From Elusimicrobiota bacterium (GTDB taxonomy: Bacteria; Elusimicrobiota; Elusimicrobia; UBA1565; UBA9628), in the NCBI GenBank assembly GCA_016182905.1, contig JACPFR010000044.1, forward strand, positions 59,000 to 122,999: a stretch of DNA of 64,000 nucleotides, read 5' to 3'. Numbering within the stretch: position 1 is the stretch's first letter; each line of letters starts with the position of its first letter. The translations under genes and the position numbers were made by a program. A model generated the notes under the pieces. The model was not told the origin of the DNA. It did not search any database and saw only the letters and a program-made list of their open reading frames with translations. This document shows positions 1,333 to 40,016 of the stretch, piece by piece.

Positions 1333-1344
1333 CTTCCTTGTCCG

Positions 1345-1514: not shown

Positions 1515-1518
1515 ATCC

Positions 1519-2121: not shown

Positions 2122-3029
2122 AAAAACCGCTCAAGAACGTTGCCGCGTCAGTCCGGCAAAAACTCGCCAACCTCGCAAAAGAATCGAAGCGCCCGTTCGC
2201 CGAAATCCTTCAGTACTATGCGATGGAGCGGTTCCTTTATCGGCTCAGCCGGTCGGAATACAAGGATCGCCTCGTGCTCAAGGGCGCGCTGATGTTCGTC
2301 GCCTGGGGCACCCCGCGCTCGCGCGCCACCAAGGATATAGACCTCCTGGCGCGGACGGAAAATTCGATCGCGAATTTGGTGAAAGTCATCCAAGACATCT
2401 GCCGCATCGAAATCGAAACGGACGGAATCGTATTCGATCCGGCGCTCGTGAAGGGCGAGAAGATCAAAGAGGACGTGGATTATGAGGGCGTCCGGCTTCT
2501 ATTCCAGGGGAAGCTGGAACAAGCCCGTATTCATATGCAGATCGACGTCGGCTTCGGCGACAGCGTGACTCCGGCGCCGGCCGCGATCGACTACCCCGTG
2601 ATCCTCGATCTGCCCGCGCCGAAGCTCAAGGGCTACCCGCCGGAGACGGTGGTCGCGGAGAAGTTCGAGGCCATGGTCAAGCTCGGCATGATCAACACCC
2701 GAATGAAGGACTTCTATGATCTTTGGCTGCTGAGTCGTCAGTTCGACTTCGACGGCGAAACGCTGGCCGAGGCGATCCGGACGACCTTCGCGCACCGCGG
2801 CACGACTCTCACGCCAACGCCCACGGCGTTCACGTCCGCGTTCCACGAGGAGAAGCAGCCGCAATGGCGCGCGTTCCTTTCGCGCACGGGCCTCACCGGC
2901 GCGCCGGAGTCGCTCAAGGAGACTATCGCTCCCATCAAAGAATTCCTCATCCCAATCGCTGAGGCAGGCATGGTGGACCGAAAATTCTCCATGCGCTGGG
3001 CGACGCTGGGACCGTGGAAAGCCAAATGA
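2118..3029 (+). CDS. abiEii: AbiEii-type toxin, nucleotidyltransferase (DUF1814)
   Basis: 303 aa. N-terminal nucleotidyltransferase-fold motifs (GALMFVAWGTPRSRATKDIDLL). ATGA/GTGA start-stop overlap with abiEi. Confidence 0.8.
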   Translation: MKKPLKNVAASVRQKLANLAKESKRPFAEILQYYAMERFLYRLSRSEYKDRLVLKGALMFVAWGTPRSRATKDIDLLARTENSIANLVKVIQDICRIEIETDGIVFDPALVKGEKIKEDVDYEGVRLLFQGKLEQARIHMQIDVGFGDSVTPAPAAIDYPVILDLPAPKLKGYPPETVVAEKFEAMVKLGMINTRMKDFYDLWLLSRQFDFDGETLAEAIRTTFAHRGTTLTPTPTAFTSAFHEEKQPQWRAFLSRTGLTGAPESLKETIAPIKEFLIPIAEAGMVDRKFSMRWATLGPWKAK

Positions 3030-4832: not shown

Positions 4833-6113
<1,281 letters not shown>

Positions 6114-7664: not shown

Positions 7665-8387
7665 ATGATCGAATACCTCGCCGCGCTCTCGCTCCTCGCC
7701 GTCGCCGCGCCCGCCCTCGCCCAGCCCGCCGCCGATCCGCCGCTCGTGGACGCCGTCAAGGCGGGAGACGCCGCGGGCCTGAAGGCGCGCCTCGCCGCGG
7801 GAGCGGACCTCGGGGCCAAGGACGCCCACGGCTGGACCGCGGTGATGTGGGCCGCGGGGCACGCCGACGGGGCGACGCTGAAGGCCTTGCTGGACGCGGG
7901 GGCGGACCCCGCGCCGAAGGACGAGCCCGGCTGGTCGGCGATCGTCGAGGCCGCGAAGGGCGGCAAGGCGGCGAACGTCGCCCTGCTCGCCGCGAAAGGC
8001 CTCGACTGCTCGGCCAAGGACTCCGCCGGGGTCCCCGCGCTCGCCTACGCGGCGGCGGTCTCGACGCCGGCCGTCTCGGCCCTGCTCGCGTGCAAGGCCA
8101 AGGTCGACGCGCGCGACTCGAACGGGCTCACGGCGCTGACCCGCGCCGCCCAGCTCGGCCGCGCCGCCGCGGCGGGCCGGCTCATCGCGGCCGGCGCCAA
8201 GGTCGACGCGAAGGACGCCCTCGGCTACACCGCCTTGATGTGGGCCGCCCACGGCGGCTGGACCGACACGGTGAAGACGCTCCTCGCGGCGAAGGCGGAT
8301 CCGAAGCTGAAGAGCGGCGACGGTCTGACGGCGCGGGAGCTCGCCCTCAAGCGCGGCCACGCCGCGGCCGCGGACCTCCTGGAATAG
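7665..8387 (+). CDS. Secreted ankyrin-repeat protein
   Basis: Signal peptide MIEYLAALSLLAVAAPALA. Roughly six ANK repeats (GWTAVMWAAGHADGATLKALLDAGADP, GYTALMWAAHGGWTDTVKTLLAAKADP and others). Confidence 0.8.
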   Translation: MIEYLAALSLLAVAAPALAQPAADPPLVDAVKAGDAAGLKARLAAGADLGAKDAHGWTAVMWAAGHADGATLKALLDAGADPAPKDEPGWSAIVEAAKGGKAANVALLAAKGLDCSAKDSAGVPALAYAAAVSTPAVSALLACKAKVDARDSNGLTALTRAAQLGRAAAAGRLIAAGAKVDAKDALGYTALMWAAHGGWTDTVKTLLAAKADPKLKSGDGLTARELALKRGHAAAADLLE

Positions 8388-8389
8388 CC

Positions 8390-9658
8390 GTGCGGGCGCC
8401 GCTCGCGGCCGCCGTCCTCGCCGCGGCCCTGTGCGCCGCCGCGCCGGCCGACGCGCCGCCCCCCTCGCTCGACGAGGCGACGGCGGCCTTCAAGACGGGA
8501 GAGCGCAAGAGGGCCCTCGAGCTCCTCGCCGCGGCCCGGCCCCGGGAGGGCGGCGCCGAGCGGCGCGAGCGCGCGGCCCTGCTGTACGCCGACCTCAAGG
8601 ACTACGCCGCCGCCGAGTCGATGATGAACGACCTGATCCGCGAGTCTCCCGGCGAGCCGCGCCTGCGCCTCTACCTCGCGACCATCGTCGCGCGGGCCGG
8701 CGACCGCGCCGCGACGCTGAAGGCCCTCGCCGAGGCGCGCCGGCTCGGCCCGACCGCCCTGGACCGCCAGCGCATGGCCTTCCTCCACCAGGACTTCAAG
8801 GACTACGCCCCGGCGCGGGAGCTGCTCGACGGGCTGATCGCGGAGTCCCCGCGGGACCTGAGCGTCCGGCTCGACCGAGCCTCGCTGGCGGCGCAGAGCG
8901 GCGAACGCGACGCGGGCCTCGCGCACCTCGCCGCCGCGAGCAGGCTGAAGCCGGGACCGGAGGAGCGCCGCCGCATGGCCGGGCTGTACCGCGACCTGGG
9001 CGAATCCGGCCGGGCGCGCGCGCTGCTCGACGGCCTCATCAAGGACTCGCCCGCGGACGGACGGCTGAGGTTCGAGGCCGCCGCGCTCGCCGAGCGCGCC
9101 GGAGACCGCGACGCGGCGCTCGCCGCCATGGCCGAGGCCCTGCGCGCGGGCCTCGACCCCGACGGCCGCCGCCGCGCCGCGCTTTTCTATCAAGGGCTGG
9201 GCGAGCACGGCGAGGCCCGCGCCGTCCTCGCGGGGCTCGTCAAGGACGCGCCGCGCGAGCCGGGGCCGAGGATCGAGCTCGCCGAGTTCGAGGCGCGCCG
9301 CGGCGCGCGCGCCGCGGCGCTCGAGGCGCTCGCGGCGGCGAAGGAGCTCGAGCCGGACCTCCAGGAGCGCCAGCACATGTCCTTGGTCTACGAGGAGTTG
9401 AAGGAGCACGAGACGGCGCGCCTCATGATCGACGCGCTGATCGCCGAGCAGCCCGAGGACCCGCAGCTCCGGCTCAATCGCGCCTACTTCGCGGCCGACG
9501 TCGGCGACCGAGCCGGGGCGCTCGCGTTCCTCGCCGAGACCCGCGAGCGCGCGCCCGATCCCGACGACCGGCGGCGCATCGCGACGCTGTACGAGCGCCT
9601 CGGCGAGCACGCGGCGGCGCGCGCCGCGCTCGACGGCGCTCCGGAAAAAAGCCGTTGA
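8390..9658 (+). CDS. Secreted TPR-repeat protein
   Basis: GTG start 2 nt after the ankyrin stop. Signal peptide VRAPLAAAVLAAALCAAAPADA. Repeated roughly 34-aa units (ALLYADLKDYAAAESMMNDLIRESPGEPRLRLY...). Confidence 0.7.
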   Translation: MRAPLAAAVLAAALCAAAPADAPPPSLDEATAAFKTGERKRALELLAAARPREGGAERRERAALLYADLKDYAAAESMMNDLIRESPGEPRLRLYLATIVARAGDRAATLKALAEARRLGPTALDRQRMAFLHQDFKDYAPARELLDGLIAESPRDLSVRLDRASLAAQSGERDAGLAHLAAASRLKPGPEERRRMAGLYRDLGESGRARALLDGLIKDSPADGRLRFEAAALAERAGDRDAALAAMAEALRAGLDPDGRRRAALFYQGLGEHGEARAVLAGLVKDAPREPGPRIELAEFEARRGARAAALEALAAAKELEPDLQERQHMSLVYEELKEHETARLMIDALIAEQPEDPQLRLNRAYFAADVGDRAGALAFLAETRERAPDPDDRRRIATLYERLGEHAAARAALDGAPEKSR

Positions 9659-9698
9659 CGAAAACGGGAGCCGGGGCTATACTGCGTTTGAGGACGAC

Positions 9699-9890
9699 AT
9701 GAAGAAAACACTGGCGAAGTCGGTCCGGCACCACAAGGTTTCCTCTCGGAAAGCGAAGGGCGGCAAGGCGCTTGAGTTCGAGCAGGGCTGGAACGAGCTC
9801 GAGGCGCAGCATGACCGCCTGAAGACCGATTGGATGAGCCTCGCGGTCCAGCTCGGGATCGGCGGATCCGATAAAGCGGCTTACGACTAG
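9699..9890 (+). CDS. Small hypothetical protein (63 aa)
   Basis: ATG with GAGGA 7 nt upstream. Codon usage is unlike the flanking spurious ORFs. No recognisable domain. Confidence 0.35.
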   Translation: MKKTLAKSVRHHKVSSRKAKGGKALEFEQGWNELEAQHDRLKTDWMSLAVQLGIGGSDKAAYD

Positions 9891-12410: not shown

Positions 12411-12546
12411 GGTGATTCTCCTTGCGTCAGGGTTCGGCTAAAGGCAGCCGCCCCTCTATTTTTTTACCACGAAGACACAAAGACGCGAAGGAAACGTCGT
12501 TCTTAGCGACTTGGCGTCTTGGTGGTTCGATTAACTGTACAAGAAA

Positions 12547-13857
12547 CTAGAGGCAGCCTCCCCGCTTGAGGATCTCGCGGGCGGAAGCGCCGTAGGGCTC
12601 GAGCGAGAAGCAGGCGTCGAGCTCCTTGGCGGACAGGCGCTTCGACACGTCGGGGTCGCCCGCCAGGTGCTCGCGCAGCGGGCGGCCGTCCTTCCAGGTC
12701 TTCATCGCGTTGCGCTGCACGAGGTCGTACGCCTCGAGGCGGCCGAGGCCGGCGTCGATGAGGCGCAGCAGGACCTTCTGCGAGAAGACGAGGCCGTTCA
12801 TCTTGTCGAGGTTGCGCTTCATGTTCTCCGGGAACACCTGCAGGCCGTCGAGCACCTGCTCGAGACGATGGAGCATGAAGTCGAGGGCGATGTGGGCGTC
12901 GGGGATGATCATGCGCTCGTTCGAGGAGTGCGAGATGTCCCGCTCGTGCCACAGCGCGCAGTTCTCCGTCACCGCCGACTCGTAGGTGCGGATCAGGCGC
13001 GCGAGGCCGCACAGGTTCTCGCACAGCACCGGGTTGCGCTTGTGGGGCATCGCGGAAGACCCCTTCTGCCCGTCGGAGAACGGCTCCTCGAGCTCGAGGA
13101 CCTCCGTCTTCTGCAGGTGCCGGATCTCGAGGGCGATGCGCTCGACGAAGCAGGCGGTCAGCACGAGCGAGTGGAAGTACTCGGCGTAGCGGTCGCGCGG
13201 CACGACCTGGGTCGAGACCGGCTCGGGGCGCAGGCCGAGCGCGTCGAGGACCTTCGCCTCGACCTCGGGCGAGAGCTGAGAGAACGCGCCGACGGCGCCG
13301 GAGACCTTCCCGTAGGCGATGAGCTCGCGCGCGGCGCGCAGCCGGCGCAGGCAGCGCAGGCCCTCGGCGTGCCAGCCGGCGACCTTGATGCCGAAGGTGA
13401 TGGGCTCGGCGTGGACGCCGTGGGTGCGGCCGACCATCCAGGTGCGCTCGTGCTTCTTGGCCAGGGCCTTCAGGCGCTTGAGTACGGCCTCGACGCCGGC
13501 GACGAGCAGGTCGGCCGAGTCGCGCAGCTGCAGCGCCATCGAGGTGTCGAGCACGTCGGAGGAGGTCATCCCGAAGTGCAGGTAGCGGTCGACCTTGGGA
13601 GCGGTCTTCTTCAGCTCGCCGGCGACGGCCGCGAGCATGCCGATGACCTCGTGGCCGGCGCTCGACTCCTTGCGGCGGGAGGCGTCGAGCAGGGACTTCT
13701 CGAGCAGCTTGCGCAAGGTCTTGAGCTCGGAGGCGGGCACGCCCTTCTCCGGGGCGATCGCCTTGAGCAGCTCCTCCTCGACGCGCAGCATCGCGCGCAG
13801 GCGGTTGTCGTCGGACCATATCTCGCCCATCGCGGGGCGGGTGTAGCGTGGGATCAT
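12547..13857 (-). CDS. purB: Adenylosuccinate lyase
   Basis: Start at MIPRYTRPAMGEIW with AGGAGG ribosome-binding site; the 772-aa ORF is an artefactual extension. Fumarate-lyase signature GSSAMPHKRNP. 436 aa. Confidence 0.9.
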   Translation of the reverse strand: MIPRYTRPAMGEIWSDDNRLRAMLRVEEELLKAIAPEKGVPASELKTLRKLLEKSLLDASRRKESSAGHEVIGMLAAVAGELKKTAPKVDRYLHFGMTSSDVLDTSMALQLRDSADLLVAGVEAVLKRLKALAKKHERTWMVGRTHGVHAEPITFGIKVAGWHAEGLRCLRRLRAARELIAYGKVSGAVGAFSQLSPEVEAKVLDALGLRPEPVSTQVVPRDRYAEYFHSLVLTACFVERIALEIRHLQKTEVLELEEPFSDGQKGSSAMPHKRNPVLCENLCGLARLIRTYESAVTENCALWHERDISHSSNERMIIPDAHIALDFMLHRLEQVLDGLQVFPENMKRNLDKMNGLVFSQKVLLRLIDAGLGRLEAYDLVQRNAMKTWKDGRPLREHLAGDPDVSKRLSAKELDACFSLEPYGASAREILKRGGCL

Positions 13858-17930: not shown

Positions 17931-19043
17931 TTACCTTATTAGGCTTTCGTACAGTTCGAGGAGGGCGGAGGCGCCGCGGTCCCAGGCGCAGGGGAGCGCG
18001 GCGGCGGGACCGGAAGCTCCGACGCGGGCGCGCTTTTCCGCGTCGGCGAAGGCGAGCATCGACGACTCGAGGGCCTCGCCGGAAGGGTCCGCGAGGACGG
18101 AGTCCCGGGCCTCCCCCTTCAGGAGCTCGGCGGCGCCGACCGAGGCGCCGGTGACCACGGGCAGGCCGCAGGCGAGGGCCTCGAGCACGCTCATGCCGAA
18201 CTCCTCCCACTTCGCGGGATGGACGTAGACGTCGAGCGCGTGGTAGAAGCGCCAGACCTCGGGGAGCGGGTCGCGGAAGACGACGCGATCCGCGACCCCA
18301 AGCTCGCGCGCGAGCGCGAGGTAAGGACCCGGGCGCGACTCCTTGCCGACGACCAAAGCGCGCGCCTCGGAGCGCCTCCGCGCGACGGCGGCGAAGGCGC
18401 GCAGGAAGGGCTTCAAGCCGCGCTTCTCGAAGTCCCCGGAGGTGACGAGGCCGTAGAGGAGCTCCCCGGGCTTCACCCCGAGCTCGGCGCGCGTCGCGGC
18501 GCCGAAGTCCGCGCGTCCTCCGGGATTGAAGCGGCACGAGTCGAACCCGGGATGGATCACCGTGATCTTCTCGGCGGGCACTCCGAAGCGGCGCGTCACG
18601 TCGTCCTTCATCAGGTTCGAGTTCGCGACGAGCGCGCGGAAGCGCCCCTGCGACAACTGGATCGAGTGCATGCGCCCCACGGCGTCGTCCTCGGGTAGAG
18701 GGCGTTTATGAAGGGATTCATGCGCGGCATGAACGCAGTTGTGCAGGCTCAGCACGTCCTGGTCGAGCAGGTCGCCGTGGCCGTGCACGAGATCGAATTT
18801 TTTCGTCATCCCCTCGGCCGCGGCCGCGAAGGCGCGCCGCTTCATCCACGAGCCCCAGGGCCAGGCCGGGACCCAGTGCGGGACCGCGCCGGCGTCGAGC
18901 AGCGCCTTCTTGTCGAGCTTCTCCGCGAAGACGTGCACCTCCCAATCCCCGCGGGAGAGGCGGCGCGCGTGCTCGACGATCATGCGCGCGGCGCCCGACA
19001 ATCCCTCGACCCGCCGTGCCGCCACGGCCAACCTCCTCTTCAC
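17931..19043 (-). CDS. Glycosyltransferase family 4 (WaaG/RfaG-like)
   Basis: N-terminal GLSGAARMIVEHARRLSRGDWEVHVF aligns with the WaaG GGxxRD region. C-terminal EX7E region EEFGMSVLEALACGLPVV. GTG start overlaps the upstream stop (GTGA). Confidence 0.8.
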   Translation of the reverse strand: MKRRLAVAARRVEGLSGAARMIVEHARRLSRGDWEVHVFAEKLDKKALLDAGAVPHWVPAWPWGSWMKRRAFAAAAEGMTKKFDLVHGHGDLLDQDVLSLHNCVHAAHESLHKRPLPEDDAVGRMHSIQLSQGRFRALVANSNLMKDDVTRRFGVPAEKITVIHPGFDSCRFNPGGRADFGAATRAELGVKPGELLYGLVTSGDFEKRGLKPFLRAFAAVARRRSEARALVVGKESRPGPYLALARELGVADRVVFRDPLPEVWRFYHALDVYVHPAKWEEFGMSVLEALACGLPVVTGASVGAAELLKGEARDSVLADPSGEALESSMLAFADAEKRARVGASGPAAALPCAWDRGASALLELYESLIR

Positions 19044-19633
19044 CGGACCCCCACGATGCGCAGGATCGTCGCGGAGGCGACCGGGATCCAGAGGTTGTCG
19101 TTGGACCAGGGAGTCGTCGGCAGGAGCTCGGCCAGCGCGCCCGCGAGGGCGGCCGCGAACGCGGCGCCCGGCCGGAGGCCGCAGGCGAGCGCCGCGGCGA
19201 AGCCGACCGCGAGGCCGGCGAGGCTCCCCTCGAGCGACTTCGCGCCGCCGAACAGCTTCGTGCGGCCGTACGCCTTGCCGACCAAAGCGCTCGCCGCGTC
19301 GCCGAGCGCCAGCTGCAGGATCGCCGCGCCGACGATCATCGGCTCGCCGCGCGCGATGAGCATGGCCGCCAGGCTCCCGGCCGTGGTGTGGAAGATGCCG
19401 CTGAAGTGCTTCCGCTCGGTCTCGCGGATCATGCCGTCGAAGAAGCCGACGAGCGCGCGCTCGATCGCGGGGACCTTCAGGCGCAGGGTCTCGATGAGGA
19501 GCACGACGGGCAGCCAGACGGCCATCATCCAGCCGACGCGGGGCCAGCCGACGAGATGGAACGCGCCGAGGTAGGCCAAGGACAGCATGTGGAAGGTCTT
19601 GCGGCCGAACTCCCGGCGGAGGTCGCTCGTCAT
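19040..19633 (-). CDS. CTP-dependent polyprenol/diacylglycerol kinase-like membrane protein (CTP_transf_1 / DUF92 / dolichol-kinase family)
   Basis: Start at MTSDLRREFGRK, with ATGA overlap onto the upstream stop. C-terminal GDAASALVGKAYGRTKLFGGAKSLEGSLAG matches the dolichol/phytol kinase signature. Confidence 0.6.
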   Translation of the reverse strand: MTSDLRREFGRKTFHMLSLAYLGAFHLVGWPRVGWMMAVWLPVVLLIETLRLKVPAIERALVGFFDGMIRETERKHFSGIFHTTAGSLAAMLIARGEPMIVGAAILQLALGDAASALVGKAYGRTKLFGGAKSLEGSLAGLAVGFAAALACGLRPGAAFAAALAGALAELLPTTPWSNDNLWIPVASATILRIVGVR

Positions 19634-20367
19634 GAGAACGCCGCCTTGCGCGCCGACTCGAACGCGGGCCGGCTCCACAGCCACGCCAGGCTCCAGAAGC
19701 GCTTCGTCAGGCCGCCCGCCTCGCGCAGGTTCGCCAGCAGGGTCACCGCGTCCGGGAAAAGCCCCTTGAGCAGGGCCATCAGCATGAGGGCGTTGGCGAT
19801 CGCGATCAAGGCGACGGAGAACAGCACGCCTCCGGCCGCGTCGAGGTCCGGCTGGCGAGTCTGGGTCAGGGAATCCCAGGTGAACAGGAGATGGGCGGCC
19901 AGCGCGCCGCCGAGGAGGAACAGGAACAAGGCCTCGCCTCCCGCGTCGGGCCGCAGCCAGAGGAGCATGCGGTAGGCCATGGCGACGGTCAGCGCATAAA
20001 ACGGCACGCAGTAGGGAGCGAGTGCTACGAACGCGCTCGAGTGCGACAGGTCGACGTGGCCTTCCTTCTCGCCGACGGAGATCGCGTACACGCTGCCGCC
20101 CGTGGCCCAGGCCGCCATCGCGTGGGTGAGCTCGTGGCCCAGGACGTAGCTCCAGCGCGCGCCGCGCGCGGCCCAGGCCGCGGGCCCGACCGGATCGACG
20201 AGCAGCCAGCGGCGGATCGCCCACAGCGCGAAGGCGAGGCCGAGGCCCGCCCCGAAGGGCGCGGCCGACGTGGAATGGACCGCGACGCCGGCGAGCGTCT
20301 TGGCCGACACCCAGAGCAGCGAGCCGGACAGCGGGAGGAGGAGGACGCCGATCAGCAGGCGCAGCAC
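19630..20367 (-). CDS. Polytopic membrane protein with intramembrane HExxH motif (putative M50/DUF3267-like zinc metallopeptidase)
   Basis: YVLGHELTHAMAAW is embedded between hydrophobic helices. 245 aa. Confidence 0.5.
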   Translation of the reverse strand: MLRLLIGVLLLPLSGSLLWVSAKTLAGVAVHSTSAAPFGAGLGLAFALWAIRRWLLVDPVGPAAWAARGARWSYVLGHELTHAMAAWATGGSVYAISVGEKEGHVDLSHSSAFVALAPYCVPFYALTVAMAYRMLLWLRPDAGGEALFLFLLGGALAAHLLFTWDSLTQTRQPDLDAAGGVLFSVALIAIANALMLMALLKGLFPDAVTLLANLREAGGLTKRFWSLAWLWSRPAFESARKAAFS

Positions 20368-20370: not shown

Positions 20371-20835
20371 CTACTCCAGCATGTAGTCTTGGTAGGGGAT
20401 CTTGCGGGCGTCGAGCTCCTTCTTCCAGAGCTCGCGCGTCTCCGTCATCTTTCCCCGCGCGAGGACGCTCCAGCGGTTCTCGGGCGGGCTGAACAGCTCG
20501 GCGGCGGTCTGATACCAGACGTAGGCGTACTTGAGCGAGCTCTCGGCCACGGCCTGGTCCCGCTCGAAGCGCGCCAGCCCCGCCTTGCGCTCGTACGCCG
20601 CGCGGTCGAGCATGCCCTTGGCCAGCTCCCGCGACAGCTCGCCTTCGCGCGCCGCGAGCTCGGCGTCGAAGTGAGCCTTCTTGAGCTCGGGTCTGCGGCT
20701 CCACTCCATCCATTTCTCGCCCTCGAGATAGGCGGAGCGCGAGCGCAGGACCAGGTCGACGCGGGCCATGCCGTAGACGGCCGCGACGAGCGCCGCCGCG
20801 ATCAGGGCCGACCGGACCCAGGCCCGGCCGTTCAT
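20371..20835 (-). CDS. Hypothetical membrane-anchored protein
   Basis: One N-terminal transmembrane helix, then a charged helical region. 4-bp overlap with the upstream receiver-domain gene. Confidence 0.45.
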   Translation of the reverse strand: MNGRAWVRSALIAAALVAAVYGMARVDLVLRSRSAYLEGEKWMEWSRRPELKKAHFDAELAAREGELSRELAKGMLDRAAYERKAGLARFERDQAVAESSLKYAYVWYQTAAELFSPPENRWSVLARGKMTETRELWKKELDARKIPYQDYMLE

Positions 20836-21248
20836 GCCGCGTCGCCGGGCGGCGCGGTGCCCAGCAGGTTGTGCAGCGCCACGGTGAGCATCGCCGGGCG
20901 CACGGGCTTCTGAAGGAAGTCCTTCACGTTCGGCTCCTGGCGCACCATCTCGATGCTCTTGGCGTCCATCGCGCGGCCGGTGACGACGATGATCGGGATG
21001 TGGCCGAAGCCGCGGGACTGGAGCTCGCGCAGGGCCTCGTAGCCGCCCATGCTGGGCAGCATGAAGTCGAGCACGATCGCGTCGGGCTCGAGCGCGGCGA
21101 CCTTGGCCAGGGCCTCGATGCCGTCCTCCGCGCGCTCGGTGCGGAAGCCGGCCTTCTTGACGACGTGGTCCATCAGGTCGAGCAGGGACTCGTCGTCGTC
21201 GACGAGCAGGACGAGCTTGCTGGACGGCGCTCCGGCGGTATCGCTCAT
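20832..21248 (-). CDS. Single-domain response regulator (CheY-like receiver)
   Basis: LVLLVDDDESLLDL ... AIVLDFMLPSMGG ... IIVVTGRA. Receiver domain with phospho-acceptor Asp. 138 aa. Confidence 0.85.
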   Translation of the reverse strand: MSDTAGAPSSKLVLLVDDDESLLDLMDHVVKKAGFRTERAEDGIEALAKVAALEPDAIVLDFMLPSMGGYEALRELQSRGFGHIPIIVVTGRAMDAKSIEMVRQEPNVKDFLQKPVRPAMLTVALHNLLGTAPPGDAA

Positions 21249-21652
21249 GCGGCCTCCGGGGCTCGCGGCCTGAGGAGGCGCTCGAGCGTCGCGACGAGCA
21301 CGCTGGGCTTGAGCGGCTTCTCGAGGAAGTCCACGACGTTGGATTCCTGGCGGATCATCTCGGCGGTCGAGCGGTCGGTGTAGCGGCCGGTGATGATCAC
21401 GATCGGGATGAGGGAGAGGTCGCTTCCCTGCAGCTGGCGCAGGACCTCGAACCCGCCGTAGCGGGGCATCATCAGGTCGAGGAGGATCAGGTCGGGCTTG
21501 AGGCGCTCCGCCTTCTGCACGCCGTCCTCGCCGTCCACGGCGACCTCCGCGCGGAAGCCCTCCTTCTTGATCATGAAGGTCAGGAGGTCGCGCACGCCGT
21601 CGTCGTCGTCGATGATCAGGACGAGCTTCGCCTTTTCTTCGGGTTCGGCCAT
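21245..21652 (-). CDS. Single-domain response regulator (CheY-like receiver), paralog
   Basis: LVLIIDDDDGVRDL ... LILLDLMMPRYGG ... IVIITGRY. ATGA overlap with the downstream receiver-domain gene. 135 aa. Confidence 0.85.
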   Translation of the reverse strand: MAEPEEKAKLVLIIDDDDGVRDLLTFMIKKEGFRAEVAVDGEDGVQKAERLKPDLILLDLMMPRYGGFEVLRQLQGSDLSLIPIVIITGRYTDRSTAEMIRQESNVVDFLEKPLKPSVLVATLERLLRPRAPEAA

Positions 21653-21733
21653 GGCCTCATTTTACCGTATTTTTGCCGTCAGGATATGGCGCCGGAGGAG
21701 CGCCGGGGCTATACTCCCGCCGAGAGGTACCCC

Positions 21734-22720
21734 ATGCGCCGATCCCGCTCCTTCCTCGCCGCCGGCCTGTGCGTCTCCTTCCTCGTCCAGTCGACCGGCG
21801 CCGCCGACCTCGCGCCGGTCTTCGCGCGCGGGATGATGCTGCCTCCGCCCGGACGCATGGCCCCTCCGCCGAGGACCGCCCAGCCCGCGAAGCGCGCCGT
21901 GAAGCCCGCGCGGGAGCCCTGGCTCGTCTCCGCCGCCGTCGTGGCGCGCTGGGTCGAGGAGCGGCTGACCGCGGCCCTCGCCGCGCCCGCCGCCGTCGAG
22001 GAGACGGTCGCCCCCGAGGCGCTCGCGTCCTTCTCCGCCGCCGCGTCCGCCGAGCTCGTCTCCGTCGCGTCGCTCCCGAACCCCGAGCCTCCGGCCGACC
22101 GCATGCTCATCGCGATGGAGGGCCGCCGCGTCCTCGCCTCCGGGCTCGCGGCGCAGCTGGCCTCGATCCGCGAGTTCCGCGCCGACCTCAAGCCCCTGCG
22201 CCCGCGCTTCACCGGCGAGTGGGTGGGCCGCGGCGACGTCCGCGCGCGCGTCGACTACATGAACCCCTTCGGCGTCACGCAGGGCGAGGCCAAGGGCTTC
22301 CGCGTGAAGCTCTCCGACGGCTACGAGCGCCTGCTCCCGAGCCGCAGGCCCATCCCGGAGTCGCTGATGCGGGAGCTGCCGCTGTATTTCGCCGGGGACG
22401 CCGTGGACGTCGAGGTCCGCGTCCGCAACGACGGCGCGGCCGCCCTGACGGACCTGACGGTCGCCTCCGTGCAGGAGGCGCACACCGCCGACGGGGCGCC
22501 GGGCGCCCCGGTGGCGAAGCCCGTGACCAAGAGCGTCGCGACTTTGGCGCCCGGCGAGACCGCGATCCTGCGCTGGCGCATCAAGCTGTCCCCCGCCGGC
22601 CTCGACGCCGTGAACTTCGAGCAGACCCACCTGAAGGTGCTGGGCAAGGACCCCGCCGGCGGGGAGAAGGTCCTGCTCGACGAGACGCAGGCCGGGATCG
22701 TCGATCCGCCGGGCGAGTGA
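21734..22720 (+). CDS. Hypothetical secreted protein
   Basis: Start at MRRSRSFLAAGLCVSFLVQSTGAADL (signal peptide) with GAGAGG ribosome-binding site. Ala/Pro-rich N-terminal half and a beta-rich C-terminal half. Confidence 0.5.
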   Translation: MRRSRSFLAAGLCVSFLVQSTGAADLAPVFARGMMLPPPGRMAPPPRTAQPAKRAVKPAREPWLVSAAVVARWVEERLTAALAAPAAVEETVAPEALASFSAAASAELVSVASLPNPEPPADRMLIAMEGRRVLASGLAAQLASIREFRADLKPLRPRFTGEWVGRGDVRARVDYMNPFGVTQGEAKGFRVKLSDGYERLLPSRRPIPESLMRELPLYFAGDAVDVEVRVRNDGAAALTDLTVASVQEAHTADGAPGAPVAKPVTKSVATLAPGETAILRWRIKLSPAGLDAVNFEQTHLKVLGKDPAGGEKVLLDETQAGIVDPPGE

Positions 22721-22753
22721 TGAGCCGCGCCGGTTGTTCTATAATGGCCGCCC

Positions 22754-23146
22754 ATGGATCTCGATGAATTCCGCGGCCGCGTCGAGCGCATCGACAAGCT
22801 CGCCGCCTCCGGCGACGACCGCGCGCTGCTGTCCGAGCTGAACGGCCTCGCGGACTCCGACCTTCCCGACCTGGACCGCGCGCGCCTCCTTTGCCAGGCC
22901 GCGCAGGCCCACGAGCGCCTCGGCGAGGCGGACCGGGCGCTGGCCGCGTACGACCGCGCCGCGGCCCTCGAGACGCCGCACCGCCGCTTCCAGGCCGCCT
23001 TCCGCAAGTCCGACTACCTGATGCGCCTCGGCCGCAAGGACGAGTGCCGGGACATCCTGAAGTCCCTCCTGGAGCGCCCCGAGGCGACGCTCTCCGAGCG
23101 CCACTCCTTCGAAGCCCGGATCAAGCTCCTGCGCCGCGTCGCCTGA
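22754..23146 (+). CDS. Small TPR-like helical protein
   Basis: 130 aa. Helical repeats (RARLLCQAAQAHERLGEADRALAAYDRAAAL). Confidence 0.4.
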   Translation: MDLDEFRGRVERIDKLAASGDDRALLSELNGLADSDLPDLDRARLLCQAAQAHERLGEADRALAAYDRAAALETPHRRFQAAFRKSDYLMRLGRKDECRDILKSLLERPEATLSERHSFEARIKLLRRVA

Positions 23147-23149
23147 GCC

Positions 23150-23848
23150 TCAGCGCGGGGCGGTCTTCAGCGTCTTGTGCAGGGCCGAGACGAACTTGGC
23201 CATCTTGACCGGCTTGGCGACGAACTCGACGACGTTCGCCTCCGCGCGGATCATCTTGATCGTCGAGTCGTCGAGCGCGCTGCCGGTGACGATGAAGACC
23301 GGGATGCGCCCGGTCGCCCCGCCCTGGAGCGAGCGCAGGAACTCGTAGCCGCCCTGACCCGGCATCATGAGGTCGGTGATGATGAGGTCCGGCGTCTGGG
23401 ACTCGAGCTTCGCGCCGGCGTCGAGCCCATCGACCGCCGTGAGCACGCGGAAGCCCTGGAGGCTCGCGCTCATCTCGAGGAAGCTGCGCACGGTCTCGTC
23501 GTCGTCGACGACCAGGATCAGCTTGTCGCCCGGGGCCGCGAGAGCGGGCGCGGGATCGGCCACGGTCGTCTCCGCCGGCGCCGCCGGCAGCGGCGCGGCG
23601 GCCGGCGGAGCAACGGGCTTCTCCGCGCGCGGCGGGGCGGCGGTCAGGAAGATGCCGCTCGAGTCCGGGTCCAGCGCCTTCGCCAGGTCGGGGAAGCTCG
23701 CCGCCGCCTTCCACGCGTCCTGCGTGGTCGCGCCGGCCGGAAAGACCAAGGTCTCCCTCTTGAATCCCGGGCGCAGGGCCAGCTGCGCGGCCTCGAACGG
23801 ACCGACCGGCTTTCCCTCTTCATAGAGGTAGTACGGCATGGAGGTCAC
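23150..23848 (-). CDS. Response regulator with N-terminal GYF-like/DUF4339-like domain, Pro/Ala linker and C-terminal receiver domain
   Basis: N-terminus MPYYLYEEGKPVGPFEAAQL. Receiver domain LILVVDDDETVRSF ... LIITDLMMPGQGG ... VFIVTGSA. Third receiver paralog in 3 kb. Confidence 0.75.
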   Translation of the reverse strand: MTSMPYYLYEEGKPVGPFEAAQLALRPGFKRETLVFPAGATTQDAWKAAASFPDLAKALDPDSSGIFLTAAPPRAEKPVAPPAAAPLPAAPAETTVADPAPALAAPGDKLILVVDDDETVRSFLEMSASLQGFRVLTAVDGLDAGAKLESQTPDLIITDLMMPGQGGYEFLRSLQGGATGRIPVFIVTGSALDDSTIKMIRAEANVVEFVAKPVKMAKFVSALHKTLKTAPR

Positions 23849-23870: not shown

Positions 23871-24155
23871 CTACTGCGCGACGGGCGCGGGCGCGGCGTC
23901 GGGAGCGGCCTCGGTCTTCTTCTCCTTGCGCTCCTCCTTGGCCTTGCGCCGCATGGCCTTCATCTTCTCCTTGTGGGCCCTGCGCTTCTCGTGCTGCTTC
24001 TCCTTGAAGGCCTGGCGATCCGCCTTCATCTCCTTCTTGAACTCCTGATGCTCGGCCTTGATCTCCGGGGGAGGGCCGCCGGCGGCGGGCTTGTCTTCGG
24101 CGCGGACGGGGACGATCAGGGTGAGCAGCAGGGCGGCGGACAGGATGGTTCTCAT
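23871..24155 (-). CDS. Small secreted Lys/Glu-rich periplasmic protein
   Basis: Start at MRTILSAALLLTLIVPVRA (signal peptide) with GGAG ribosome-binding site. Highly charged helical repeats. Confidence 0.5.
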   Translation of the reverse strand: MRTILSAALLLTLIVPVRAEDKPAAGGPPPEIKAEHQEFKKEMKADRQAFKEKQHEKRRAHKEKMKAMRRKAKEERKEKKTEAAPDAAPAPVAQ

Positions 24156-31998: not shown

Positions 31999-33159
31999 AT
32001 GAACTCGAATCCCTCCGTTTCGGCCCCGGCGCGCGCGATCGGAAGCCTGCTGCTGGCGCTGGCGCCGTTCGCGCCGCCGGCGGCGGCCCAAAGCACGCGC
32101 CATTACGAGGCCGCCGACCCGAACGCGTCCGGCGAGGACGCGAAGGCGTCGCCGGCCCCTGCCGCCGCGGCGTCGCGTCCGGCCCGCTCGGCCCCTCGCG
32201 TCTTTCGCGTCGTCCGGCCCGGAGGCATCCACGCCGAGGCGAACGTGGAGAGTTCGGCCCCGGTCATGGGCGAAGTCGAAGCCGTCGTCGGAGCCGGCAT
32301 CGGTACCGGCGCGAAGGACAAGAGCCCCGGCGCCAATCCCGCGAGGCGCTACTGGGGCGGCTCGAACGGGGCCTCGACCGCTCCCGCGAAGCCGATCACG
32401 TCCTCCGGTCCCAGCGGCCCGGCGAAGCCGCCCAAACAAGGGATCCGCGTCGTCGACGACAAGAAGAACCCGATCGCCTCGGGCTCGTTCTTCGACACGC
32501 AGACCGTTTATTTCCAGATCTTCGGCTACGACGAGAAGGACACGTCCGTTTGCCTGGAGAGCCTGGTCATGAAGGGAGACCTATTAGGGGACTGCGCCGA
32601 TTTCGTGAAATTGCCCGACACGACTTACTCGATCAGCTACAACAACGGGAGATTCTCCTACGCCAACGGGATATGGGAAGCGAGGTACAAGAGCATCTAC
32701 TGGTACGACACGCTGCGCATCTCAGTGACCAACTCGAAGGGCGAGAAGTCGGTCAAAACGTTCCGTACCACCGGCTCGGAAACGCACCCCTCCGCGCTGG
32801 GCCGCCACTTCGTCGACGGCAAGGTCAAGAACTCGCCGTACAAGAGAGGGGAGATCGTCGAGGTCCATATTTTCGGATTCGACGAGAAGGACGCTTTTGT
32901 CTGCACGCAGATCCGCGACGACGCGACCCATGCCGACATCGCCGTCTGCTCTCCGTACGCCGATTTCAGCCGCTTCACGAAGCTGCCGGGCCAAAACTGG
33001 TCCTATCAAAACGGCGCTTGGGTCAAGAAATTCAACACCAACGACATGAGGCTGGATACGACCTATTACGTGCGCCTCAGGAACTCGAAGAACGCCGAGT
33101 ACGCGGACATGCTGCAGTTGATGAGCCACCCCCCCGGCTTCGTCGTGGGGCCGAACTAG
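31999..33159 (+). CDS. Secreted protein with two tandem copies of a roughly 70-aa Cys-containing domain; C-terminal half in a low-GC segment
   Basis: Signal peptide present. Internal repeat: FFDTQTVYFQIFGYDEKDTSVCLE...LPDTTYSISYNNG versus IVEVHIFGFDEKDAFVCTQI...LPGQNWSYQNGAW. GC falls to roughly 55% over 32450-33160. Confidence 0.55.
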   Translation: MNSNPSVSAPARAIGSLLLALAPFAPPAAAQSTRHYEAADPNASGEDAKASPAPAAAASRPARSAPRVFRVVRPGGIHAEANVESSAPVMGEVEAVVGAGIGTGAKDKSPGANPARRYWGGSNGASTAPAKPITSSGPSGPAKPPKQGIRVVDDKKNPIASGSFFDTQTVYFQIFGYDEKDTSVCLESLVMKGDLLGDCADFVKLPDTTYSISYNNGRFSYANGIWEARYKSIYWYDTLRISVTNSKGEKSVKTFRTTGSETHPSALGRHFVDGKVKNSPYKRGEIVEVHIFGFDEKDAFVCTQIRDDATHADIAVCSPYADFSRFTKLPGQNWSYQNGAWVKKFNTNDMRLDTTYYVRLRNSKNAEYADMLQLMSHPPGFVVGPN

Positions 33160-33194: not shown

Positions 33195-33506
33195 CTAGGA
33201 CTTCGCGAGGACGTCGAGGAGCACGCGCGCCAGGCGGCGGCGCTCCACCATGTCGTTCCAGCGCAGCTCGGCGAAGCGCGCGCCGTCGTCGTCGTCATAG
33301 GCGTGGTGCACGAGGGCGGGGATGAGCAGGCGCTCGCCGCCCAGCTCGAACTGGACGAGGACGGTCTCCCCCTTCGCGAGGCGGGCCGCGGTGGACAGCT
33401 CCGCCCCTCCGGCCGTTATCTTAAGGAGACGGCCCCAGGAATCCTGGCGCGCGGAGGAGCCCGGGAAGCGGAGCAGCGCCGGAACGAGGTAAGGGGCCCG
33501 CGTCAT
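33195..33506 (-). CDS. Small PilZ-like domain protein (putative c-di-GMP binding)
   Basis: 103 aa. RQDSWGRLLKITAGGAEL resembles the PilZ (D/N)xSxxG region. The RxxxR motif is not canonical. Confidence 0.4.
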   Translation of the reverse strand: MTRAPYLVPALLRFPGSSARQDSWGRLLKITAGGAELSTAARLAKGETVLVQFELGGERLLIPALVHHAYDDDDGARFAELRWNDMVERRRLARVLLDVLAKS

Positions 33507-34654
33507 CGCGGCTCCTCTTTATGCCGGACCAGACGCGCCGGACCCCGCCCGTCCTTCGCCTCGCCGACGGTCCAGAACCGCGCGCCGTCCCAGGAGACGC
33601 CGGTCGGGATGAAGTCGCCCTCGGCGTATTCGGGGAGCGGGAGGCCGTCGATGGGCTCCTCGGGGCGCTCCAGGGCGTAGCGCACGAGGCGGCGGTCGGC
33701 GGCGTCGAGCGTCCAGAGCGAACGGCCGTCGAAGACCAGGCCGGCGGGCTTCGAGCCGCGCCACCTGTAGGTCGCGAGCACGCTGAGCTCGCGGTCGACG
33801 AGGTGCTTGCGCAGGACCTTGGCGCGGGCGTCGAGCGTCCAGAGATAGAGGCCGTCGAAGGCGAGGCCCGCGCAGTTCGGCGCGGCCTTCGCGTACCGGG
33901 CGAGCGGGGTCATCTTGTCGTCGCGCATGCGGCGGATGACGGTGCCGTCGGCGGAGACCGTCCACATCGCCTCGGCGGTGAAGGCCGCGGCCACGGGCGT
34001 GTCCGCGGTCAGGTGGCGGACGACCCGGACGGCGGTGTCGTCCGGCGAGAGCGCGTAGAAGGATTGGGTGAACCACTCGACGAGCCACAGCGACTTGCCG
34101 TCGAAGGCGAGCCCGGCCGGATGGCGGACCGGGAGCTCCCAGCGGTCGACGCGGGCCGCGGCGGCGGCGCGGTTGGCCTCGACGCGCTTGAGCGAGGCGA
34201 CGCCGAGCCCTGCGGCCAGGAACAGGCCGACGGCCAGCGCGTACCAGATCGGCGAGCGGCTCAGGGGCGCGGCGCTCGCGACCGAGACGGCCGTGCCCTG
34301 GAAGCGCAGGCCCTTGGAGACCGAGGCCTTGAGGTCCTCGGGCGTCCACGGCGGGGCCACGACCTCGGCGGCGCCCACGCGCATCAGCGCCACGGCGCGG
34401 CTCGCGTCGCGCACCTTCAGCGCCACGACCACGGGCATGAGCGGGAAGGCGCGGAGCAGCTCGCGCGTCAGGCTCTCGGCGTCGGCCCCGCCCCCGTCGA
34501 CGAGCAGGAAGGCCTTCGTCTTGCGCTCGCGCGCGAACTCGAGCGCCTCCTCGAGGCGGCCGGCGCCCTCGGTCCGGTGGCCGAGCTCGCCGAGCATGAG
34601 CCCGAGGAGCTCCCGGTCCGCGGCTTCCTTCGCCAGCAATCCGATGGCGGCCAT
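33503..34654 (-). CDS. Membrane protein with N-terminal degenerate receiver-like domain, one transmembrane helix and C-terminal beta-propeller-like repeats (FDGxxLW)
   Basis: Pseudo-receiver: FLLVDGGG ... VVVALKV. TM helix IWYALAVGLFLAAGLGV. Repeats GLAFDGKSLWLVEW / GLAFDGLYLWTLD / GLVFDGRSLWTLD / GVSWDGARFWTVG. Confidence 0.55.
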   Translation of the reverse strand: MAAIGLLAKEAADRELLGLMLGELGHRTEGAGRLEEALEFARERKTKAFLLVDGGGADAESLTRELLRAFPLMPVVVALKVRDASRAVALMRVGAAEVVAPPWTPEDLKASVSKGLRFQGTAVSVASAAPLSRSPIWYALAVGLFLAAGLGVASLKRVEANRAAAAARVDRWELPVRHPAGLAFDGKSLWLVEWFTQSFYALSPDDTAVRVVRHLTADTPVAAAFTAEAMWTVSADGTVIRRMRDDKMTPLARYAKAAPNCAGLAFDGLYLWTLDARAKVLRKHLVDRELSVLATYRWRGSKPAGLVFDGRSLWTLDAADRRLVRYALERPEEPIDGLPLPEYAEGDFIPTGVSWDGARFWTVGEAKDGRGPARLVRHKEEPR

Positions 34655-36079: not shown

Positions 36080-37000
36080 ATGAGCGAGGAGCACCCGCAC
36101 AAGACGAGCCGGCTCGGCGTGATCCTGGTCTTCATCGCCGTCGGCGGCTCGGCCGTCGGGGTGGCGGGCTGGCACCTCATGTCCAACCGCAGCGCCGGCC
36201 TCGACACCTCCGGCTTCGACATGAGCGCCGCGCCGGACCCCGCCCAGTCCGCCGCGCCGCCTTCGTTCCCGGCGCCCGGCCCCGCCGATCCCGCGCCGGC
36301 CCAGCAGACCAGCCTGGGCATGGTCAAGGGGGACGCGGGCATGCGCGTCGCCGGCCCCGGCGCCTCGACGCCCAAGCCGGCGGGCGCCTCCGGCGCGACT
36401 CCGAACCCGACCGACCCGCGGCAGGCGGCGGCGCTGAACTTTAAGGAGGCCGCGCTCAAGAACGAGAAGATCGTGGCCGCCTTCGTCCGGCGCATGGAGA
36501 AGAAGCACACGTCCATCACGCAATACGGCCGGGACTGGGCCGCGTCCCCCGAGCTGCGCGCCCTGCGCGACGCGTATTGGAAGGACAGGGATCCCTTGAA
36601 GTTCGCCTACGGCCTGGCCAAGTCGAACGATTTCAGCAAGCTGGTGAAGAAATACGCGGGCGATCCCGGGATCCGCGACGCCCTGGTCACGGGCATCAAG
36701 GAGGCGCCTCCGAGCCTGACGGCCGCGATCGGCGGGGTCGCCCAGAACGACGGCGTCGCGAAGAGTCTCGTAAGCACCGTGATCAAGGCCGTCGGCCTTC
36801 CCGCGAGCCTGACCGGCTTCCTCGACGGGGGCGAAGCCAAGGCCGTCAACCGGGATCAGGTCATGTCCGACATCATGAACTCCGAGGACATGAAGAAGGC
36901 CATGAAGAACCAGCCCGCCGCCGTGCCGCTCGACGCGAAGGACGCCGAGAAGGCCCCGGAAGCGGCGCCCAACGGATTCCGCCCCCTCGGCGGACGCTGA
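36080..37000 (+). CDS. Hypothetical membrane-anchored periplasmic protein
   Basis: N-terminal transmembrane helix (LGVILVFIAVGGSAVGVAGW), Pro/Ala-rich linker, helical C-terminal domain. 306 aa. Confidence 0.5.
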   Translation: MSEEHPHKTSRLGVILVFIAVGGSAVGVAGWHLMSNRSAGLDTSGFDMSAAPDPAQSAAPPSFPAPGPADPAPAQQTSLGMVKGDAGMRVAGPGASTPKPAGASGATPNPTDPRQAAALNFKEAALKNEKIVAAFVRRMEKKHTSITQYGRDWAASPELRALRDAYWKDRDPLKFAYGLAKSNDFSKLVKKYAGDPGIRDALVTGIKEAPPSLTAAIGGVAQNDGVAKSLVSTVIKAVGLPASLTGFLDGGEAKAVNRDQVMSDIMNSEDMKKAMKNQPAAVPLDAKDAEKAPEAAPNGFRPLGGR

Positions 37001-37585: not shown

Positions 37586-38509
37586 TTACCGCGCTAAAAG
37601 GGCTTCCTGGAGGCGCCGGGACACCGAGCCCGGCAGCCACACGAGATGCAGGATCGCCGTGTAATGCCCCAAGGGGAGCCAGACCTGGCGGGAGTCGGGG
37701 AAGGCCTCCTTGAGCCTCAAGGCGTTGGCCCTCGGGATGACCGTGTCCGAGTTCACGTTGATCAGGAGGGCCTTCTTGCCCGCGTTGGACGCCTTGTAGT
37801 CCAAGGGGTCGAGGCCGGTCCAGGCCGTCCGAAGATCCCCCGCCTGGAGGCCCATCTTCTTGACGAAAGGCCCGCTCAACGAGCCGTTGAGCGCGATGCC
37901 CGGGAAATCGGCCCCGCCCATCACGAACACGCCGGCCGCCGGCCGCGGGTCCACGGACCACGTCACCGAGCCCACGATGGCGCCGAGGCTGATGCCGAAC
38001 AGGGCCACCCGCTCAGGGTCCACCTCGGGCCGGGCGGCGAGCACGCCGAAGGCCCGCCGCGCGTCCGAGACCGACTGGCGGAAGTTCCGCGCGAGCTGGC
38101 CGGTCGTACGCGCGAGGAAGACCTGGCCGCTCGGCATGGACGGATGCGGCCGGCGGTGGAACTGCGTGGGCATCTCGATCCACATGACGACGAGGCCGTC
38201 CGAAACGAAGCGGTCCACGAAACGCGTCTCGATCCAGACGTTCGGCGCGGCCATCACGGGAAGGACCAGCACCGCCGCGCCGCTCTTCCGCTTCGCCGCG
38301 TCAGGCACGGACAGGTGCGCCCAGACCGTGTCGTTGGCCGGCCACGGGCTCTTCGCCGCCGACGGGAACTTGAGCAGGTAGTCGGTCCGGCCCGGCGCCG
38401 TGCTGACCTCGACGATCGAGATCTTGAAGTCCTTGCCCGGCGCCGCGAGGCCCGCGGCCCCGGCCGGCGCGGCCAGCAGCAGCGCGAGCGCGGCGGCGGT
38501 CCCCGTCAC
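37586..38509 (-). CDS. Secreted alpha/beta-hydrolase (dienelactone-hydrolase / S9-like esterase fold)
   Basis: GISLGA nucleophile elbow. A GTG start 2 nt after the upstream outer-membrane-protein stop was chosen; it could instead start up to 99 nt upstream (MGQVHGP...). Confidence 0.55.
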   Translation of the reverse strand: MTGTAAALALLLAAPAGAAGLAAPGKDFKISIVEVSTAPGRTDYLLKFPSAAKSPWPANDTVWAHLSVPDAAKRKSGAAVLVLPVMAAPNVWIETRFVDRFVSDGLVVMWIEMPTQFHRRPHPSMPSGQVFLARTTGQLARNFRQSVSDARRAFGVLAARPEVDPERVALFGISLGAIVGSVTWSVDPRPAAGVFVMGGADFPGIALNGSLSGPFVKKMGLQAGDLRTAWTGLDPLDYKASNAGKKALLINVNSDTVIPRANALRLKEAFPDSRQVWLPLGHYTAILHLVWLPGSVSRRLQEALLAR

Positions 38510-38511
38510 GG

Positions 38512-39957: not shown

Positions 39958-40016
39958 GCAGAATAAGTATAACGCGTTTTGCCGTGACGCGCCATGGAGG
40001 CGCAAGGGAGAATCAC

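Follow-up and report, generated by a model that had tools for sequence, protein, structure and literature searches.

Three related receiver domains in an Elusimicrobiota genome: a receiver pair heading a conserved envelope operon and a separate GYF-linked receiver

What do receiver domains act on when they carry no DNA-binding output and no histidine kinase is encoded beside them? The question is raised by a 64,000-nucleotide stretch of an Elusimicrobiota bacterium (GenBank assembly GCA_016182905.1, contig JACPFR010000044.1, positions 59,000 to 122,999 of the forward strand; hereafter the window), in which three paralogous receiver domains, here called REC1, REC2 and REC3, lie within 3 kb. Comparing the window with related loci, we lean, with a little better than even confidence, towards two separate signalling elements: a pair of stand-alone receivers, REC1 and REC2, that would act on a module of two membrane proteins, p154 and p245, encoded in the same operon, and an independent switch, GYF-REC3, in which a GYF-type domain is joined to a receiver by a Pro/Ala-rich linker.

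The three receivers and the search for a kinase

The receivers are encoded as follows, with scores for the Pfam family Response_reg (PF00072), whose gathering score is 30.2 bits:

20832–21248, minus strand: REC1, a single-domain response regulator of 138 amino acids (aa); 79.6 bits, E 2.5e-22
21245–21652, minus strand: REC2, a 135-aa single-domain response regulator and the first gene of its operon; 84.6 bits, E 7.1e-24
23150–23839, minus strand: GYF-REC3, 229 aa, with a GYF_2-type domain, a Pro/Ala linker and a receiver; 72.8 bits, E 3.2e-20

The sequence-only reading that had singled out this locus described three paralogous receivers that all keep the phospho-acceptor aspartate, and both points were borne out, with Pfam E values of 1e-20 to 1e-24 and pairwise identities of about 45–47%. 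The catalytic quintet (acid pair, Asp, Thr, Lys) comprises D17/D18, the acceptor D61, T90 and K114 in REC1; D15/D16, the acceptor D59, T88 and K112 in REC2; and D112/D113, the acceptor D156, T185 and K209 in REC3, and it is conserved across the orthologues of all three receivers. The residues at D+2 and T+2 are M63 and R92 in REC1, M61 and R90 in REC2, and M158 and S187 in REC3, while REC1 and REC2 both have Gly at T+1 and Phe as the aromatic switch residue at K-3. The C-terminal block proposed as a shared signature is indeed present in all three, except that its (I/A)EM segment reads IKM in REC3. Since Met/Arg at D+2/T+2 goes with slow autodephosphorylation (PMC8510515), this pair of residues, along with the Gly at T+1, suggests that REC1 and REC2 hold a long-lived signal rather than serve as a sink.

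The three are true paralogues and not merely alike as any receivers are: compared with an OmpR-type receiver on a different Elusimicrobiota contig, they reach only 20–30% identity. In a neighbour-joining tree built from the receiver sequences of the window and the related loci (numbered with L below), REC1, REC2 and REC3 formed three separate clades, or orthologous groups, with 54–76% identity within and 41–52% between them. REC1 is sister to REC2, as a tandem duplication would lead one to expect. Next to them comes the REC3 clade, which takes in one stand-alone receiver without a GYF domain (L012), and the only receiver at the Ca. Obscuribacterium magneticum locus (L014) branches at the base. 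Orthologues of REC2, 71–100% identical, occur on many Elusimicrobiota contigs, and the nearest solved structures are the receivers of MtrA, PhoP, YycF and RR468 (E about 1e-19 for REC2). No named regulator family model in NCBIfam reached its cut-off for any of the three; the PhoB and MtrA models matched through the receiver part alone, far under cut-off. REC1 and REC2 thus belong to the receiver family and to the functional class of single-domain regulators, with no named subfamily, and the trio appears to be one Elusimicrobiota-specific subfamily of canonical receivers, predicted from their sequences to be phosphorylatable. Two other identities were considered and rejected: an OmpR/PhoB-type transcription factor, as REC1 and REC2 stop after the receiver and have no Trans_reg_C domain, and an aspartate-less pseudo-receiver, as every catalytic residue is present and conserved.

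What we say about kinases is based on Pfam scans of the window's open reading frames (ORFs) and on precomputed Pfam lists for the related loci. The roughly 55 ORFs scanned in the window showed no HisKA or HATPase_c domain, in line with the earlier statement that the window holds no histidine kinase, and no further Response_reg domain; nor was a histidine kinase listed in L001, L089 or L090. The nearest sensor named before, a GAF+PAS protein (48967–49851), lacks a kinase domain as described, and the Ser/Thr kinase that had been noted is present (Pkinase, 61960–63618), 38 kb from the receivers. A cognate kinase just outside the window had been named as the finding that would overturn the earlier picture. 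On the left side, the edge to which this answer applies, an extension by 3.2 kb revealed a 637-aa HATPase_c_3 (MORC-like) protein beside AbiEi/AbiEii; it was rejected as a sensor kinase, being a defence-type ATPase in such company.

The Ser/Thr kinase bears on one alternative, that the receivers are targets of crosstalk from Hanks-type kinases, as had been suggested, or pseudo-receivers working independently of phosphorylation. A Pkinase protein does lie in the window, yet at a distance of 38 kb, and none is listed within 10 kb of the looked-up gene in L001, L008, L089 or L090, the Pfam-annotated loci carrying the REC pair; moreover, unlike in pseudo-receivers, all five residues of aspartate phosphorylation are conserved in the orthologues. 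We consider this alternative highly improbable.

A second proposal of the sequence-only reading treated the three receivers as phosphate sinks or connectors, draining a shared CheA-type or other kinase in a chemotaxis-like network. Such a role is compatible with receivers that stand alone or are poor in effector parts, keep an intact active site and have no kinase linked to them, and single-domain regulators do serve as sinks in some chemotaxis systems. Here, however, no che gene or methyl-accepting chemotaxis protein was found among the scanned window ORFs or listed in the Pfam-annotated related loci. The NCBIfam CheY model gave REC3 42.9 bits against a cut-off of 189 and fell outside the top 25 models for REC1 and REC2, the Met/Arg pair of REC1 and REC2 sits poorly with a sink, and the strict linkage to p154 and p245 described below points to a dedicated target. 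A role as sinks is therefore very unlikely.

The operon of the receiver pair

Downstream of REC2 and REC1, five further genes continue on the same strand:

20371–20835, minus strand: p154, a protein with a single N-terminal transmembrane helix and a conserved helical domain
19630–20367, minus strand: p245, a polytopic membrane protein with an HExxH motif, divergent and Peptidase_M50B-like
19040–19633, minus strand: p197, a hydrophobic, probably membrane-located conserved protein, an operon member in L001, L008, L009, L010, L089 and L090
17931–19025, minus strand: a glycosyltransferase of family 4 (GT4), with Glyco_transf_4 and Glycos_transf_1 matches on the identical L006 gene
15675–17909, minus strand: an AsmA/DUF748-like protein, the last conserved operon gene (Pfam DUF748 62.3 bits, AsmA 35.9 bits)

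Gene order was derived from a codon-position G+C filter and the ORF list, and the boundaries were confirmed by the gene calls on two contigs identical over the region. The G+C content at third codon positions of the three receiver ORFs (0.94–0.96) is typical of real genes in the window, whose overall G+C is about 70%. The start of REC1 overlaps the stop of REC2 by 4 bp. The window proteins match metagenome-assembled genomes labelled Elusimicrobia or Elusimicrobiota, and NCBI proteins encoded on a 143,109-bp contig are 100% identical to REC2 and p245 (locus tag HYV14_13795 for the latter). The GT4 product also gave weak, sub-cut-off NCBIfam matches to GT4-type glycosyltransferase models, and p197 had no family match in Pfam or NCBIfam.

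The order REC-REC-p154-p245-p197-GT4-AsmA recurs in L001 (the complete genome CP096137.1), L008, L009, L010, L089 and L090. REC2-REC1 is a tandem duplicate heading a conserved cell-envelope operon. In the far more distant Ca. Obscuribacterium locus (L014), a single REC is followed by homologues of p154 (p171) and p245 (p241), whereupon a YdjM-like gene comes next, in place of p197, GT4 or AsmA, and later genes are unrelated, so that the trio of REC, p154 and p245 emerges as the core that persists over the greatest distance. A metagenome scan queried with the p245 alignment separated close relatives (at least 160 bits) from distant ones (70–130 bits). Directly upstream of p245 lay p154 in all eight close relatives, and one or two RECs were found upstream in all five that had enough upstream DNA, while among 72 distant M50B-like relatives none had p154 upstream and a single one had a REC within 2 kb. 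The linkage to REC and p154 is thus specific to the p245 subfamily and not a general property of M50B-like genes.

These patterns bear on which operon product the receivers might address. That REC1 and REC2 regulate the operon through p197, GT4, the AsmA-like protein or the pathway as a whole, rather than through p154 and p245, would agree with the conservation of all seven genes in six independent loci; we nevertheless judge it unlikely, because in the Ca. Obscuribacterium locus REC, p154 and p245 are all that stays together, which makes p154 and p245 the most persistent partners. Another alternative is that the receivers have no target of their own and are Spo0F-like intermediates, which take phosphoryl groups from a hybrid or orphan kinase and hand them, by way of an Hpt protein, to a DNA-binding regulator at the end of the relay. 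Such a role would suit free-standing receivers whose active site is canonical, and tandem copies could take two inputs. Against it, the window yielded neither an Hpt nor a kinase gene, and the Pfam lists for the conserved neighbourhood name none; the partners kept with the receivers are membrane proteins rather than Hpt proteins, and REC3 has an interaction domain of its own. A phosphorelay role is, in our view, quite unlikely.

The two favoured partners have different characters. In p154, one N-terminal hydrophobic helix is followed by a strongly conserved helical domain with the motifs ESSLKYAYVWYQTAAELFSPPE and PYQDYMLE; the protein is conserved from the window to Ca. Obscuribacterium and has no match in Pfam or NCBIfam. 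In p245, the HExxH motif (H78, E79, H82), placed in a predicted helix at 62–88, and the residues E100, H104 and D106 are invariant across 25 orthologues. Against Peptidase_M50B (PF13398; gathering score 26 bits), the copy in the window reaches 11.8 bits (E 0.2), and 23 of the 25 orthologues match this family at E ≤ 0.1, the best at 7.1e-7. A p245 profile search of 1.84 billion representatives returned 1115 relatives at E ≤ 0.001; remote relatives sampled from these had PF13398 in ten of ten cases, three at or above the gathering score, and Peptidase_M50 was also touched in four. The AlphaFold2 (AF2) model, with a mean predicted local distance difference test score (pLDDT) of 79.7, shows an all-helical membrane protein in which a small beta hairpin follows the HExxH helix. 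Fold searches gave nothing significant (Foldseek E > 0.3), the highest-probability Foldseek matches being SpoIVFB and the Methanocaldococcus jannaschii site-2 protease (S2P). Taken together, the sequences point to p245 as a divergent M50B-like, that is, site-2-protease-like, putative metalloprotease.

The GYF-linked receiver and a two-element model

The third receiver is built differently, and its parts lie as follows:

23672–23839, minus strand: GYF_2-type domain, residues 1–56 (GYF_2 22.0 bits, with orthologue matches)
23525–23671, minus strand: Pro/Ala-rich linker, residues 57–105 (from family composition and the AF2 model)
23150–23524, minus strand: REC3 receiver domain, residues 106–229, and stop codon (Response_reg, as above)

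The likely start is the ATG at 23839 (MPYY) and not the GTG at 23848, and it is so called on the two region-identical contigs. The fusion to a GYF/DUF4339-like N-terminal domain through a Pro/Ala linker had been read correctly: the window copy covers the full 50-position profile of GYF_2 (PF14237, formerly DUF4339) at E 1.4e-4, if short of the gathering score, and of 28 REC3 orthologues, 18 reach E ≤ 0.01, with 1.1e-6 as the lowest value. AF2 models residues 1–58 as a confident small alpha/beta domain (pLDDT 85–88), and the top PDB match of the N-terminal profile, end to end though weak (E 0.16), is 7z3c_A, the GYF domain of Myxococcus GltJ/AgmX. Across the family, the linker spans 33–87 aa with a mean Pro+Ala content of 59% and carries a short conserved motif, GIFLTAAPPR in the window and EITLTMPPPK in other clades; its pLDDT of 44–56 predicts disorder. 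The description of REC3 as output-less does not hold, as the GYF_2 domain is its probable effector or adaptor. A full-text literature search gave no paper joining 'DUF4339' and 'response regulator', and PF14237 appears in two papers, both on plants.

GYF-REC3 orthologues are numerous (52–94% identity), and every source name given for them is Elusimicrobia or Elusimicrobiota. A scan of GTDB genomes with the GYF-REC alignment used patterns derived from the receiver part and so gives no measure of the spread of GYF-REC3; the full-length matches listed were all from Elusimicrobiota, and among the matches listed most were generic receivers of at most 43% identity. Orthologues at 52–62% identity (L002, L004, L005, L011) sit in unrelated contexts with no REC pair or kinase nearby, and no common downstream neighbour was seen, the neighbours in L002 and L004 being unrelated. 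Conversely, the REC operon occurs with no GYF-REC3 nearby in L008, L089 and L090, and the two stand side by side only within the clade of the window (L001, L009, L010 and the identical contigs). The separate contexts of GYF-REC3 and the REC operon make the clustering of three receivers within 3 kb a lineage-specific juxtaposition, and the earlier treatment of the three as one unit has to be given up. GYF-REC3 is an independent orphan regulator, so far found in Elusimicrobiota only and in varied contexts.

From these observations we propose the following scheme. A histidine kinase encoded elsewhere would phosphorylate the REC2/REC1 pair, which would act by protein-protein contact and without DNA binding on the p154/p245 membrane module, most likely by gating the metalloprotease activity of p245. 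This control would pass to envelope lipid or glycolipid assembly through the downstream GT4 and AsmA-like proteins. Independently, the GYF_2 domain of REC3 probably binds a proline-rich segment, by analogy with the binding of AglZ by the GltJ GYF domain; the ligand may be its own Pro/Ala linker, leading to self-inhibition or head-to-tail assembly, or another protein, and phosphorylation of the receiver would switch this binding. The most specific version of the scheme, in which the stand-alone receivers gate the site-2-protease-like p245 together with p154, and GYF-linker-REC3 is a self-contained phospho-switch binding its own linker, is tentative, and we think it doubtful that all its parts hold.

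Several points weigh against the two-element scheme. Adjacency reflects co-inheritance and says nothing on which operon product the receivers act on; if the conserved domain of p154 is periplasmic, contact with a cytoplasmic receiver is impossible; and the protease assignment of p245 is weak. The GYF_2 score of the window copy lies under the Pfam gathering score of 25.8 bits, AF2 did not dock the linker on the GYF domain with confidence (pLDDT in the linker as above; predicted template modelling score, pTM, 0.53), and intramolecular binding between the two is argued from analogy. In L008, genes for a HAMP-HisKA-HATPase_c kinase and an OmpR-type regulator immediately precede REC2 on its own strand, and in L014 a kinase is encoded 2.7 kb upstream, so the orphan status of the RECs is not universal; as these two kinases are dissimilar by phmmer, they provide no conserved kinase candidate. 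More generally, the support comes from the sequences of uncultured relatives and from predictions made on them, among which no interface was predicted.

Genomic surroundings and relation to known systems

The remaining features between and beside the receivers are these:

21653–21733, no strand: 81-bp intergenic region between the divergent REC2 and sec328, the presumed promoter region (from reading the sequence)
21734–22720, plus strand: sec328, a secreted 328-aa protein divergent from REC2 (signal-peptide-like N-terminus, from reading the sequence)
22754–23146, plus strand: TPR130, a small 130-aa TPR protein convergent with GYF-REC3 (TPR_8 26.1 bits)
23871–24155, minus strand: p94, a small secreted Lys/Glu-rich low-complexity protein (EHQEFKKEMKADRQAFKEKQHEKRRAHKEKMKAMRRKAKEERKEKK)

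The secreted and TPR proteins had both been placed between the receivers by the earlier reading, and correctly so. The C-terminal domain of sec328 is weakly DUF7507-like (E 0.0013), and a homologue or equivalent lies upstream of the REC pair in L001, L009, L010, L089 and L090 but not in L008. Scanning the 81-bp gap for a sigma-70 consensus gave nothing, and a scan of 15–25 kb for promoters and terminators gave no signal exceeding the shuffled expectation. Beyond p94 come a transglycosylase gene on the plus strand and a PMT_2 protein on the minus strand; the position of p94 between the transglycosylase gene and GYF-REC3 is kept across the clade of the window (L006, L009, L010).

Upstream of the receivers, the related loci differ. 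In L008 (7859–9960), 40 bp separate the kinase and OmpR-type regulator from REC2, a position that sec328 occupies in the lineage of the window. In L014 (1–3741), the same-strand genes upstream of REC encode part of a histidine kinase (HATPase_c E 3e-19), a 396-aa protein without a Pfam match, a PilZ protein, a membrane protein of 203 aa and a product resembling aspartate decarboxylase (PanD) by eye, and they may be a cyclic-di-GMP-linked input to the REC-p154-p245 module in that lineage. This kinase fragment was found by Pfam and missed by phmmer when the L008 kinase was run against six-frame ORFs of the window and L001–L016.

Elsewhere in the window, a defence-island-like trio at 52–3029 (L091 1–6432) consists of the 637-aa HATPase_c_3 protein, whose ORF is cut at the left edge of the window, an AbiEi antitoxin (1519–2121) and an AbiEii toxin (2118–3029); the G+C of the first 4 kb, 0.59–0.63 against the window average of about 0.70, suggests horizontal acquisition. 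On the minus strand, two genes for subtilases (Peptidase_S8; 4833–6113 and 6285 to about 7600) adjoin a plus-strand gene for an ankyrin-repeat protein (7665–8387; Ank_2 E 2.8e-24), a repeat type uncommon among free-living bacteria. On the minus strand at 56182–58204, a gene for an AurF-like diiron N-oxygenase (57341–58204) lies near one for a 300-aa tRNA-synt_2b protein (56182–57084), a class II aminoacyl-tRNA synthetase core only, with an 89-aa ORF (57059–57328) between them, and the two may be a small-molecule biosynthesis pair. An HNH endonuclease (51107–52000, minus strand) with a weak, sub-threshold DUF222-like N-terminus is flanked by an alpha/beta hydrolase gene and by 52101–52745, a candidate endonuclease III lookalike; it may be a mobile or selfish element. 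Long ORFs of 300–690 aa with no Pfam match at E ≤ 0.001 lie at 8431–9702, 12503–13819, 31999–33159, 33503–34654, 36080–37000, 37586–40005 and 43880–47184, and some overlap on opposite strands, so that not all of them can be real genes; either strand may be the coding one at 37586–40005 and 43880–47184.

Among known systems, the stand-alone regulators CheY, DivK, Spo0F, CpdR, MrrA and Thermotoga maritima RR468 resemble REC1 and REC2 in consisting of a receiver only, with the full DD/D/T/K site and Phe at K-3, and REC1 and REC2, too, would presumably signal through contact with other proteins. Control of a protease by a single-domain regulator has a precedent in CpdR. In contrast to these regulators, the REC subfamily has so far been seen in Elusimicrobiota only, outside any che, Hpt or kinase context, and it is partnered by one single-pass and one M50B-like membrane protein, a combination that we did not find described. 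Site-2 proteases of the M50 type with small membrane partners, namely SpoIVFB with BofA and SpoIVFA, and RseP with RseA, share with p245 a polytopic topology, the HExxH motif and conserved acidic and His residues, and the single-pass p154 adjoining p245 could correspondingly be a substrate or an inhibitor. The similarity is weak, though, with no PDZ or CBS domain and no adjacent sigma or anti-sigma gene, and control by a stand-alone receiver is, to our knowledge, not a known feature of such systems.

For GYF-REC3, the order of domains recalls the PatA/PixG type (PATAN-REC), in which the interaction domain is N-terminal and the receiver C-terminal and which is typical of pilus and phototaxis clusters. 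The same reversed order, with the binding domain first and the receiver last, is found in REC3, where the output is presumably partner binding and not DNA binding; the N-terminus of REC3, however, is GYF_2 and not PATAN, and no link to a pilus or phototaxis cluster was seen. Another parallel comes from gliding in Myxococcus xanthus, where GltJ (zinc ribbon, linker, GYF domain, transmembrane region) binds through its GYF domain the proline-rich sequence that follows the receiver of AglZ and precedes its coiled coil (PMC11135422), and bacterial GYF proteins are mostly membrane-associated (PMC11135422). GltJ shares with REC3 an N-terminal bacterial GYF_2-type domain. What GltJ and AglZ distribute over two proteins, namely the GYF domain, the proline-rich stretch and the receiver, REC3 fuses in one soluble chain of 229 aa, although it lacks the zinc ribbon, the transmembrane region and the coiled coil, and its match to GltJ is the weak one given above. 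No MglA or Agl-Glt context was seen around REC3.

The general picture of two-component signalling is unchanged by these findings. Single-domain response regulators are common and their targets mostly obscure; here, comparative genomics names a candidate, the co-inherited p154 and p245 of an envelope operon. The analysis further identifies a soluble architecture of GYF_2 domain, proline-rich linker and receiver, where the only characterised bacterial GYF protein that we found is the membrane-anchored GltJ (2024), and this compact fusion would be a convenient system for studying the control of GYF-proline-rich binding by phosphorylation. If the proposed scheme is true, GYF-linker-REC3 would unite the GltJ-AglZ interaction in a single chain, and the REC pair would link two-component signalling directly to regulated intramembrane proteolysis and so control the assembly of the cell envelope in Elusimicrobiota.

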